A DNA stretch of 64,000 nucleotides from Eledone cirrhosa. Its lineage: Eukaryota. The stretch covers positions 99,076,001-99,140,000 of the forward strand of contig OZ024742.1 of assembly GCA_964016885.1 (NCBI GenBank), written 5' to 3'. Each line of letters opens with the position of its first letter. The first letter of the stretch is position 1. The notes under the pieces are model-generated. The model was not told where the DNA came from. It did not search any database and saw only the letters and a program-made list of their open reading frames with translations. The translations under genes and the position numbers were made by a program. This document shows, piece by piece, positions 9,177-55,200 of the stretch.

Positions 9177-9318
9177 TATTTTAATAAATAAATATATATA
9201 TATATATATATATATATATATATAAAACGAAGGAAAAGTGGTAAGGAACCAGATGGAACATAACGCACCAGAGTACTCAATACTTAGTGTAGTAGAGTGG
9301 GTAATAGGAACGAGTAGG

Positions 9319-9414
9319 ATCCCGACGGCTGAGCTCAAGCCGTTTCGACGGCTAATTCTTGACTAAATGAAAATGTTTATCCTGGTAAATGAATGGCCGA
9401 ACTTCTCAGGGGGT
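9319..9414 (-). ncRNA. hammerhead-like motif family A
   Basis: Same motif as 5155-5250; a + strand degenerate copy lies at 11309-11403. Confidence 0.6.
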
Positions 9415-10536
9415 AATTCCATATATGGTAAAAGTGATTTTCACAATGATTGGTCAAAAGTTTGTTGTTGAGACACATGATTCTATCATGGCAATTTGTG
9501 GAAGGTAGGGGTAGCTGAACTTGCCAGTAGAAGAAAGAGGGAGAGGGAGTGGAGGAAACCCAGTCGAGCGTTGAATGTGACGACTACAGTAGATTCTAAG
9601 AGAAAGGTCGAAAACAGTATACTAGAGAGGGGGACGGGGGAAGAAGTCGAAACAATAAGTAAATCTATATGGAGTAAATATATAGAAAAATATAAAAATA
9701 TAAAAAAATAAAAAAACACAATTTCTGGTTACTATTCCCCTTCCACAATCATCAAATCTCTCACTGCTGGTACTGCTAAACTATAGAAAAGTTTAATAGG
9801 TGGGACGGAATACTAAATGGGAGATTGTAGTGAAAGAATTTTATGAGTTAGTAGTAATCGGCCAAATCTATCTTACAATAACAGGTCAACAAGTAGGGGG
9901 CCAAAATACTAAAAAAACTAATACGAAGTAATAATTCAGAAACCCGAAACTAATACGAAATATTAATTCAGAATCCCGAAAATGAATACTAATACGATAT
10001 ATAAGAGTACTGCTACAATACATAAATTCTAATACAAACTACATAAATGCTCGTACGATATATATGAAAAACTAATACGAAAAATTTAATACGAAAAAAT
10101 AAGTCAGAATCCCCCCCCCCTCCCCCCAAAAAAAAATAATAATACAAAGAAAATAATTACTGATATACGAGAAACTAAAGCAGAGATACCACTAACAAAT
10201 CTAGAAATCACGGAAATGGGGCAGTAATCAGATAAGAAAGCAAGTATCTGGGGTCTTGTACATATGCTATAAAAAGCGGAACCGGCCAATTCTATCATAG
10301 AATAGGGGGGGGGATACTTAGGCTAAAGAGGACCGAAGGGCTGCCTCGGGTGGGCGAGAAGGTGAAAAGAACGACGACGAAGAAGGAGATCTGCGTAGGA
10401 AGGACTAAGAAGGGATGGGGGGGAAGAAGGAAATATAGAGGAAACGATAAAAAATATATAAGAAAATCTTACGTCTACCTTTGTCAGCAGAGGTTACACA
10501 TTACAAAGTCGGCAAATGGGGTTTTTCAGCCCTAGT

Positions 10537-11103
10537 CTACCCCTGGTTATTGGTGATGTTTCTAGGATGGTTTGACCGGAGGTGGATATAGTGCAGGTTG
10601 TTGTTGGGTTTCCTGTATGGATAATACAGATCACAATCGAGGTCAAGTGTAACGTCCAGGAAGATTGCACGGGTTAGGGACGTTTGTAGGGTTATTTTAA
10701 ATCCCCTGTCGCGGAAGAAGCTGATTAATTGTTTACGGACCGGGACTGTACTACTGGGGTTGTACCCTTTAAGGGTAAGGAGCCCATCATCACGGTACAA
10801 TCCACCGCCGAATGCAGGAAACATATCGGTGAGTATAATTAGTAGGAATAATCCTATAAGATCTGTAACCTCAGCCGAATCCGTCGCGCCCATACTGACG
10901 TCGAAGGGGGAGTCGGGAGCTCTCTTTATCCATTTGAAGTTGTCGAAAAGTAGGATTGTCTTCCTGGCGTGGACGATGATATTTCTTTCCTGGTCGGTGA
11001 TGGGCGCAAGTGTCTCGGCAAAGTCCAAGGCGGCCGTTAAGAGCGGTAAGGTAAGTGAAGCATAGTAACTCTCTATGTCAAACTGTATGTATACTGGATG
11101 CAT
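10537..11103 (-). pseudogene. Penelope-like reverse transcriptase fragment
   Basis: FDIESYY, FDVSMGATDSAEVTDLIG, YRDD, FLDVTLDL, PYRKPN, SNHP motifs. Confidence 0.92.
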
Positions 11104-11466
11104 AGTTTTTTTCGACCTCTTCCTTAGAATCTGCTGTAGTCGTCACTTTCAACGATCGACGGGGTTTCCTACACTCGCTGTCCCTCTTTCTTCTACTGGC
11201 AGGTTCAGCTACCCCTACCTTCCACATAGTGCCATGATAGAATCATGTGTCTCAACAATAAACATTTGATCCATCCTTGTGACAATCACTTTTACCATAA
11301 ATGGAATTATCCCATGAGAAGTTGGGCTCTCAATTTACCAGGATAAACTTTTCATTTAGTCCAGAATTAACCGTCGAAACAGCTTGAGCTCAGCCGTCAG
11401 GGTCCTACTCGTTCCTATATATATATATATATATATATATATATATATATATATATATATATATAT

Positions 11467-54000: not shown

Positions 54001-54849
54001 AACTCAAATCTAGCATTGATCAAATTTGAATTTCATCCTTGCGAAGCCGATGAATTAAAGTATCATTCAATTACCGTGGTTGATATAAACGACCTTCGGT
54101 CGCGCCACAACTTCTGTTGTAAAAAAACATACCGATTCTAAAATTTCCCCATAATGGATATTATGATATAATTTAATTCCCATTTTCATTTCGCCCGATT
54201 TTGACAAGGATTTTAAGTTCCTGAATACTGTAATGACTGGAAATGAGACCCCTAAGTACGGGTACGACTCGGCATCGAGAGATCATTCAACAAAGGGAGG
54301 GTTCTAACATAGCCAAGGACCAAAAAGAGGCTTCAAATTTAGGACAAAATCAAGAAGCATCGGGCACCTCGAGTACACAGCGGAAAAACAAACAGATTCA
54401 AAGGAGTACTATCAGGAATTCTTCTGATTCCGTCGTGATACTGCTCGCCGTAGCTGACTGGATCTGTGATTACACGCAAATCTGGCAACTCCGTCATAAC
54501 AACGCCCTGCCTCATCCACCGCAGAAGATACAAGTTTTTATCGCAAAGAAAATTATTTCCTCCCTCAAGCATGTCTCCTATTCACCTCTTTTGACTTCTT
54601 CTTCAAGATGCCACTGAAAGTCTACCAAGTTCAGAGCCAAGAAGACATCGTGCAAACGGTCGTGACGGAACTAAGACCTATACCTGAATATGCAATACAG
54701 ACATGAAAAGATGACGCAGCTAGGCTAAGTATGAGGAAGTACAAGGGACCTACTTCGAAGGAGAATAGGATTTGGACCCCAGCAAATAGGTAATTATCCC
54801 CAGCCTGAAATATTTCATACTTTACGCAAGCACAAAAACATATATATAT

Positions 54850-54980
54850 AAGGGTGAAAGCAGCGATTCTTTAATCTGTTATTTTAATAAATATTTGCTC
54901 TAGGGTTCTTATATATTTGATATATATTTATCCTTATCGAGTCCTCTTTGGATTTTGGTCTTCTCATTTATTATTATTAC
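54850..54980 (+). mobile_element. family D pLTR tail fragment
   Basis: gggtgaaagcagcgattc plus bulged hairpin at 54897-54942. Confidence 0.75.
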
Positions 54981-55036
54981 TATATACACACACACACACA
55001 CACATATATATATATATATATATATATATATATATA

Positions 55037-55200
55037 TAGGAACCGGTAAGACCCCGACGGCTGAGCTCAAGCCGTTTCGAAACGGCTTGAGCTCAGCCGT
55101 CGGGGTCTTACCGGTTCCTATTACCCACTCTACTACCCCAAGTATTGAGTACTTTGGTGCGTTATGGTCCACCTGGTTCCTTACCACATTTCCTTCGTTA
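55037..55200 (+). mobile_element. family A pLTR end: perfect 84-bp palindrome (55037-55120) plus tail
   Basis: Centre tttc|gaaa at 55078/55079. Confidence 0.85.

Follow-up and report, generated by a model that had tools for sequence, protein, structure and literature searches.

Penelope-like elements in the window

We analysed a stretch of 64,000 nucleotides (nt) from the genome of Eledone cirrhosa (assembly GCA_964016885.1, contig OZ024742.1, positions 99,076,001 to 99,140,000 of the forward strand), referred to here as the window, for the ends at which its Penelope-like elements (PLEs) join their targets. The window is AT-rich animal DNA with many (TA)n arrays, and fragments of open reading frames (ORFs) for a reverse transcriptase (RT) and a GIY-YIG endonuclease were found at 15718-17765 (-), 17753-18979 (+), 10537-11106 (-) and 2340-3014 (-). 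The best 120 of 365 homologs were considered, and the named ones among them came from a bryozoan and an argonaut. The family B ORF could be aligned with RT-endonuclease homologs over its full length, as a single ORF with a C-terminal GIY-YIG endonuclease, and its residues Y373, Y386-G388, R397, E456 and N469 were unchanged across 20 sequences. DKG is replaced by DKT (ADKT in 17091-17765). The endonucleases of families B and D have a CxCX5C linker, no CCHH motif, and CxxC and CxH flanking E and N; the family A RT fragment does not include the linker and endonuclease region. The N-terminal RWK motif was found in the homologs, and the window ORFs are truncated at the 5' side. The window families are inserted in (TA)n, the target of the Hydra clade.

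Because the DKT motif, the CxCX5C linker, the lack of CCHH and the CxxC/CxH residues fit the published definition of the Hydra clade (PMC8557442), the elements appear to be PLEs with Hydra-type proteins, a clade call made from motifs. Identity with Neptune or Nematis was rejected, as neither the CX2-5CxxC linker nor the endonuclease CCHH is present, and identity with Naiad was rejected because the endonuclease is C-terminal and not N-terminal. A Pfam search did not score the window PLE ORFs and gave a weak RVT_1 match in one of three homologs. In the Rfam scan no match at the gathering score was found among the 150 of 250 matches listed, which were dominated by microsatellite-driven matches. 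No relative of these elements was found in the viral contigs searched.

Fold-back insertions and their endpoints

Fold-back insertions were located by self-comparison and arm alignment, with 18 arm pairs in the alignment set picked by hand. Each short arm was aligned locally to its own long arm, and the gap was measured from the last matching base to the start of the hairpin. Ten fold-backs in the window, belonging to six families, bear a bulged RCTC..T[TCA]GAGY hairpin, and all ten consist of one long and one short arm, with no long-long or short-short pair among them (Table 1). The long arm runs through the hairpin into (TA)n, and the short arm halts 3-8 nt before it (7-15 nt in one case). 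The extra tail is present on one arm only in 10/10 fold-backs, with lengths of 78 nt in family A, 86 nt in G, 90 nt in D and 162 nt in B. This pairing of a hairpin-through arm with a hairpin-short arm had been proposed in a first-pass annotation of the same DNA, and the arm alignments bear it out.

The individual gaps required some revision. The family B arm ends as had been stated, with 20512 equal to 14185 and the hairpin starting at 14181, a gap of 3 nt. In family A the short stop was correct, and the gap is 5 nt rather than about 6 nt at 11418, 50846 and 55036 (given earlier as 11417, 50847 and 55037), or as much as 8 nt when the TAT shared with (TA)n is counted as target. The family D arms likewise stop short, with gaps of 5 nt (9188) and 4 nt (20704) instead of the supposed 3 nt or so at 9190 and about 20703. 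The family G arm had been described as roughly 20 nt short at about 42129; its true end is at 42117, 8 nt before the hairpin, and this was the only coordinate wrong by more than 1-3 nt. Three further fold-backs were added to those already listed, a family A insertion at 34054 (gap 5 nt), one of the B-related family B' at 11818 (8 nt, with a short arm ending in (CT)n) and one of family H at 55287. The family H gap is 7-15 nt depending on the choice of reference arm, and its sense strand was set from its hammerhead.

The arms end on TA microhomology of 2-6 nt, nearly all at a TA/AT step. The possibility had been raised that the stop reflects an internal (TA)n, and the longest internal (TA)n lying up to 20 nt from the short site measures 3-6 nt, which is microhomology and not an array. 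Random endpoints, the other condition under which two starts were to be given up, are likewise disfavoured: the families offer 25-58 TA/AT steps each and use one site, and the chance of the observed short-end placement was 1.5e-6 when ends could fall on any TA/AT step and 6e-8 under a uniform null (one draw for each of the 6 families, with the accepted distance of 0-10 nt, or 0-15 nt for H, chosen after inspection of the data). The junctions of family A, which fall at two sites (see below), agree.

At 34054-34153 the arms do not overlap, and the short arm copies sequence missing from the long arm. The young arms are nearly identical (B 99.96%, D 278/281), and a comparison of arm identity with copy identity did not distinguish one template from two. 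No displaced tails were seen beside the short ends in the window. An independent even choice of ends would yield ten long-short pairs and nothing else about once in 1000, which suggests that the two starts are coupled on a single RNA, with one start for each target strand; we infer that both are used on one RNA molecule.

At 20684-20723 two family D ends of the short type lie opposite one another, 4 nt apart, in a palindrome; no (TA)n array separates them. Different PLE families also meet tail to tail on common (TA)n arrays (9190-9226, 11418-11468, 55003-55036 and 55508-55560), so the flank of each insertion serves as the next target.

Genome-wide junctions of family A

One contig set (X1) and three read sets (X5, X6 and X7) carrying the same species label were placed on 9224-10100. 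The figures given here are for family A and are taken from the 24 loose-end rows listed out of 1075. Three of the four runs are restriction-site-associated DNA (RAD) libraries from one study, and most reads terminate at 9357 (TCGA, probably the cut site), so that read counts are not copy numbers.

Mapping of endpoints over the genomic copies, which had been suggested as a check, gave (TA)n junctions at a long end and a short end on either side of the hairpin start at 9298. The long end at 9226 was found in 61 contigs and in 7023, 7820 and 10027 reads of X5, X6 and X7, and its variant at 9238 in 79 contigs and 1517, 1811 and 2076 reads. The short end at 9304, 5 nt before the hairpin, was found in 79 contigs and 3404, 2937 and 2941 reads. 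At a minor site, 9316, with 940 and 906 reads, the consensus resembles a subfamily variant of the 9304 end. Long ends exceeded short ends by about 2.5-4:1 in the junction reads, and their excess implies that the short arm is absent from some copies. Opposite-strand joints beginning within the tail were recorded for 9265-9354, 9266-9364, 9281-9403, 9285-9358 and 9298-9361. Were these joined head to head, a direction that the junction data do not specify, they would represent arms without overlap.

The last 150 nt of family A (9224-9373) had a read and contig depth about 30-60-fold above that of the upstream part. This reflects a very abundant short non-autonomous form of family A, with a contribution from the RAD cut at 9357.

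Hairpin structure and hammerhead context

The hairpin consists of RCTC, an upper stem, a loop, a 2-nt bulge on the 3' side and GAGY. Pairs were counted with a script-anchored alignment, in which 2 of 63 distinct hairpin rows were left out. Over the remaining 61 hairpins the register with the 2-nt bulge paired at 145/181 positions (47/56 in the window hairpins), as compared with 65/215, 72/210, 49/169 and 44/138 (26-34%) in four other registers. Compensatory exchanges were observed at hairpin positions 5 to 7, with CG/TA at the first of these (CG 40, TA 16), AT/CG/TA/GC at the next and GC/CG/AT at the last. This covariation was matched by 0/5000 shuffles. On the sense strand, G-U-type pairs outnumbered A-C-type pairs 10 to 3 at positions 5-8.

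A GAAA core lies 44-70 nt upstream of the hairpin in six window families. The putative hammerhead cores are non-canonical in family A (CTGAGAAG, 9343-9409), family B (CCGAAGA, 14240-14270) and family D (CAGAAGA, 8145-8168), and these are candidate folds; a core was looked for in window family G and none was found. Canonical cores occur in the H-related copies and in many metagenome loci. A hairpin-like motif at 4863/7830 in family C was taken as chance, the hammerhead-like core there being downstream of the motif.

Twin hairpins in related elements

Relatives of the window elements were examined in 79 metagenome loci (numbered with the prefix L). The hammerhead core lies 37-69 nt upstream of the hairpin in these (34 values), and the last hairpin is mostly 33-61 nt upstream of the ATG. 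Where 170 nt or more precede the N-terminal motif of the ORF (26 loci), two hairpins were present between the hammerhead and the ATG in 16, one in 8 and none in 2, and the hairpin motif was found in 14/1091 shuffled windows. The spacing of the two hairpins was 57-70 nt (20 values, some near-identical). Among the eight loci with one hairpin, three start just before hairpin 2 (L005, L016, L018) and two have a mutated hairpin 1 (L026, L031). Inspected by eye, the published Hydra consensi have the motif on the downstream side of the hammerhead, at the 3' end of Hydra-2_Amil and twice upstream of the ATG of Hydra-1_Ajap.

The ends of the relatives were compared by matching every hammerhead-downstream region with every two-hairpin junction, which gave 28 rows, of which 13 were usable and none was picked; the 15 set aside were 5 tandem run-throughs, 5 contig ends and 5 below 88% identity. 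Ten of the 13 ends fell within -2 to 8 nt of a hairpin, four at hairpin 1 and six at hairpin 2, the null being 0.10 or 0.19; the null restricted to TA sites gave 1e-5. The ends at hairpin 1 lie 0-3 nt before it (L003, L031, L051, L052), and those at hairpin 2 lie at most 4 nt from its start (L004 minus strand, L018, L030, L058, L063, L079). Hand-picked ends agreed, lying before hairpin 2 by 3 nt (L004 plus strand) or 4 nt (the inverted arm of L057, and L065) and before hairpin 1 by 1 nt (L068); by eye, the inverted arm of L005 ends about 6 nt before hairpin 2. L031 and L068 have a short-site end with a (TA)n 5' flank in direct orientation and no inverted arm. In L031 (5' about 980, 3' 3378) and L018 (5' 3000, 3' 5547) both ends of the copy lie at the same hairpin-adjacent site, one unit apart with a short AT-rich overlap, which hints at one round of copying on a circular RNA template.

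Two defined starts for complementary DNA (cDNA) are thus supported by the window arms, the genome-wide family A junctions, L031 and L068, and published mapping in Poseidon (PMC11167929). One of these starts had been placed downstream of the hairpin, which holds as a position and is incomplete as a description, since in the relatives this start lies just before a second hairpin copy. Both starts probably obey one rule, a few nt before a hairpin.

In L004 (2874-3013) and L012 (2365-2492), two different Hydra-type families meet tail to tail on (TA)n, and a separate hairpin is present in each.

Proposed mechanism and alternatives

The arrangement could be produced by target-primed reverse transcription into (TA)n from an RNA that is tandem or circular, so that each unit would continue at its 3' end into the 5' untranslated region (UTR) of the next. 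Such a template would present, in order, the hammerhead, about 45-70 nt, hairpin 1, a spacer, hairpin 2, about 35-60 nt and the ATG. One RT-endonuclease molecule would dock on each hairpin and set the nicked 3' end of (TA)n on a UA microhomology of 2-6 nt, a few nt 5' of the hairpin. As copying would proceed 5'-wards, the docking hairpin itself would be left uncopied. A start at hairpin 1 would give the short end and a start at hairpin 2 the long end; the tail of the long end would consist of hairpin 1 and the spacer, so that its length would follow the hairpin spacing. Where both target strands were primed, each by way of a different hairpin, head-to-head joining of the cDNAs would leave an inverted pair with a one-sided tail. 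The hairpins are candidate RT docking sites, and a second hairpin is predicted for the families of this genome. We regard docking at twin hairpins as the likely explanation of the data. The further proposal that the hairpin pair acts as a two-seat loading platform, on which two RT-endonucleases are carried by one RNA and each takes one target strand, with the tail, its length and the inverted pseudo-long-terminal-repeat (pLTR) arrangement following from it, has in our estimate an even chance of being correct.

Several observations weigh against this explanation. No copy of hairpin 2 was observed in this genome, and the window contains no 5' UTR. The window tails of 78-162 nt compare with a hairpin spacing of 57-70 nt in the relatives, and the family B spacer of 124 nt is unusually long. 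If two RTs work on one RNA, cDNA must be displaced for sequence to be duplicated. One-sided tails without an RCTC hairpin occur in family E (34 nt) and family F (57 nt), so the hairpin is not the sole route to a tail, and one E arm (11690-11736) ends far upstream of the usual site. The three misses in the end test were L013 and L014, a single insertion whose alignment extends 6 nt into hairpin 2, and L038, which matches another family; L035 has a single hairpin between hammerhead and ATG. The hairpin loci are related, and the P values, shuffles and pair counts overstate their independence. Covariance models built from foreign loci recovered few of the window hairpins: R1 found none, and R2 found those of D at E 0.06-0.09 and of A at E 2.7-5.9 and missed B, G and H. 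The structure in models R1, A4 and R2 was one column off (30% paired as given, 98% after a slide of -1), and they served as sequence finders only. Lastly, the fold-back centres at 55076, 50905, 11832 and 24022 are palindromic or near-symmetric.

Centres of this kind suit a snap-back process, in which cDNA from the long site folds at its 3' end, copies itself, stops at the hairpin (formed in the cDNA, or covered by bound protein) and jumps to the opposite end of the target by TA microhomology, so that the short end is a stop and not a start. It likewise predicts one long and one short arm, the near-identity of the young arms accords with it, and self-priming has been put forward for Penelope inversions (PMC3846280). 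We consider it unlikely nonetheless: the short arm at 34054 holds sequence that its long arm lacks, unless this was deleted later, L031 and L068 use the short site without an inverted arm, the long ends before the second hairpin copy are left unexplained, and in vitro mapping in a Poseidon element revealed two genuine starts (PMC11167929). Somewhat less probable still is a resolution at the DNA level, with the endonuclease reading the hairpin in a DNA intermediate, nicking an AT-rich site just before it and trimming the tail of one arm. Craig et al. ascribed the tail to endonuclease-mediated resolution (PMC8557442), DNA recognition by the Drosophila virilis Penelope endonuclease needed the tail (cited in PMC11167929), and the D arm at 20704 adjoins a mirror D fragment with the same end site. 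The 2-nt bulge, covarying stems, variable loops and excess of G-U over A-C pairs nevertheless resemble an RNA-protein site, no displaced tails were seen beside the window's short ends, and RT starts were determined by the RNA template in vitro (PMC11167929).

The two remaining alternatives dispense with docking. The RNA might be cut or might end at two places, through the hammerhead or host processing, with RT starting at the RNA 3' ends and the hairpins serving translation or stability; the position of the hairpins in the 5' UTR, close to the ATG and downstream of a hammerhead, would allow this. It is very improbable, given that the hammerhead core lies 37-70 nt before hairpin 1 and at neither end, that the ends are unchanged in families A, B and D with non-canonical cores, and that hammerhead mutants left the Poseidon insertion products unaltered (PMC11167929). 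We give almost no credence to ends fixed by TA microhomology or internal (TA)n with an incidental hairpin. The TA/AT step at nearly all ends, the internal 7-nt (TA)n at the family E short site and the internal microsatellites of family F speak for it, whereas the use of one site out of the many TA/AT steps on offer and both TA-restricted nulls speak against it, and for family A it is contradicted by the genome-wide read junctions.

PLEs are the sister group of telomerase RTs, and they form inverted repeats that carry a tail on one side. If twin-hairpin docking is correct, a covarying hairpin before both starts, present in coral and sea-cucumber consensi, in metagenomes and in this genome, makes the start rule experimentally tractable. 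The hairpin would also be a marker for the ends of Hydra-type elements and a candidate minimal cis-element for loading RNA onto this RT.

Other features of the window

Table 1. Coordinates of the PLE features in the window
Feature	Position	Strand	Remarks
C-terminal RT portion, CxCX5C linker and Hydra-type GIY-YIG endonuclease lacking CCHH, family B	15718-17199	-	from motifs
RT N-terminal part with DKT motif, family B	17091-17765	-	from motifs
Bulged hairpin, family B	14148-14181	-	4-bp stem, 2-nt 3' bulge, upper stem
Bulged hairpin, family A	9275-9298	-	ACTC/GAGT variant
Hammerhead-like core, family B	14240-14270	-	variant CCGAAGA ... GAAA, 58 nt upstream of hairpin; putative, from sequence only
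Long arm, family B	14024-17764	-	5'-truncated RT-endonuclease ORF, internal deletion, 1.5-kb 3' region, 162-nt tail, (TA)n 14004-14023
Short inverted arm, family B	17765-20512	+	99.96% over 2748 nt, 3 nt before hairpin; duplicated 9-mer, then (TA)n
Long arm, family A	9226-11106	-	contains an RT fragment (10537-11106); end sites: long 9226, short 9304
Short arm, family A	11107-11418	+	5 nt short of hairpin
Fold-back, family A	50846-51053		short 50846-50909 (-), long 50914-51053 (+), hairpin 50982-51005
Fold-back, family A	55036-55199		centre perfectly palindromic, hairpin 55127-55150
Fold-back, family A	34054-34153		arms non-overlapping: short 34054-34098 (-), long 34100-34153 (+) starting within hairpin
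Fold-back, family D	8013-9188		long 8013-8907 (-), hairpin 8051-8096, short 8908-9188 (+)
Older fold-back, family D	20704-23593		short from 20704 (-), centre about 22113 with endonuclease remnant, long to 23593 (+), hairpin 23508-23553
Mini fold-back, B-related (B')	11818-12008		short arm of 13 nt, gap 8 nt; hairpin 11855-11888 (+)
Fold-back, family G	42117-42460		short arm end 42117; hairpin 42383-42407 (+)
Fold-back, family H	55287-55508		short 55287-55337 (-), long 55345-55508 (+), hairpin 55421-55443
Two H-related copies	62400-62770	-	canonical hammerhead cores 62746, 62513; both reach (TA)n before expected hairpin position
Copy with long end, family D	920-3014	-	Hydra-type endonuclease fragment 2340-3014, SINE-like repeat between; inverted arm not seen
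Copy with long end, family A	5062-6339	-	inverted arm not seen
Solo long-end copy, family D	44089-44382	-	
Solo long-end copy, family D	54852-55003	+	

Family F (12170-13660 and 56219-57305) has a 490-nt tandem unit with canonical hammerheads (57073, 56583), an internal microsatellite, an inverted arm and a 57-nt tail; it appears retrozyme-like and lacks the RCTC hairpin. The family E fold-backs (11468-11736, 23781-24217) have a classical tail of 34-41 nt, and no ORF was seen in them. Positions 3516-6339 and 6680-10535 appear to be a local duplication, and the centre loop of the family C palindrome (4365-4380 and 7320-7330) has opposite orientation in the two copies. The GC-rich stretch in the family B 3' region (19330-19420, 15280-15370) may in antisense resemble a hepatitis delta virus (HDV)-like ribozyme. 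A dispersed repeat resembling a short interspersed element (SINE) is present in at least 7 pieces (2137-2357, 20935-21046, 30610-30946, 41019-41243, 58018-58241 and 61356-62261). Broken endonuclease and RT frames of the long interspersed element (LINE) type were found at 46909-50032, with an RVT_1 match at 49253-50032. An unassigned frame of 314 amino acids lies at 35835-36779.

Comparison with known systems

The two starts and the one-sided tail are already published, and the mechanism put forward in the first-pass annotation is a known one seen in another clade; what appears to be new is a covarying hairpin pair tied to the element ends. No account of the pair was found in the literature searched, with subscription papers and figures largely outside that search, and it is not described in the available parts of bioRxiv 10.64898/2026.07.22.740005, PMC7229834 and PMC4209133.

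Inverted PLE insertions have a tail of 30-40 bp at one end (PMC8557442, PMC3846280). The classical length is not found in A, B, D and G; only the 34-nt tail of family E has it. In the Poseidon element PAc of Anolis, two internal RT starts bound the tail and both target strands are cut and extended (Frangieh et al. 2024, PMC11167929). The RT needs RNA to +172, past the start at +111-118, the complex was predicted to be a dimer, and the study found two start sites and, in its available text, no rule for them (PMC11167929). The window elements resemble PAc (PMC11167929) in having two probable internal RT starts, read here from genomic ends, around an optional one-sided tail, an AT-rich target and an upstream hammerhead or hammerhead-like core. 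The PAc tail is 30-40 nt long, lies in the start of the ORF and forms an AC-rich stem-loop, with no repeated docking element described in the text available (PMC11167929). Unlike it, the tails described here are 57-162 nt long and lie in the 5' UTR, with a copy of the conserved bulged hairpin after each start, the second copy being a prediction for the window families.

In protein and target the elements resemble the Hydra clade of Craig et al. 2021 (PMC8557442), with DKT, CxCX5C, no CCHH, CxxC and CxH around E and N, and (TA)n targets; the hammerhead that this clade has near its 3' end is present with a canonical core in the H-related copies. The consensi of that study contain the hairpin; hammerheads are annotated there, and the available text annotates neither the hairpin pair nor its link to the ends (PMC8557442). 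The Penelope inverted pLTRs of Adineta vaga share the head-to-head arms, palindromic junctions and one-arm tail, which is 31 bp long and was attributed there to self-priming (PMC3846280). Departures from the Hydra clade are the variant hammerhead cores of families A, B and D in the window and a B 3' region of more than 1.5 kb.

LINE-1 twin priming produces an inversion by extension of two primers on the same RNA; its second site has no known fixed position, and its arms are not known to share duplicated sequence. The non-overlapping arms at 34054-34153 are like its products. In telomerase RNA, a protein-bound stem fixes the internal use of the template by a related RT, and a boundary element marks where copying stops. 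Unlike that boundary element, the hairpins described here would mark the start, and the likeness is drawn as an analogy.

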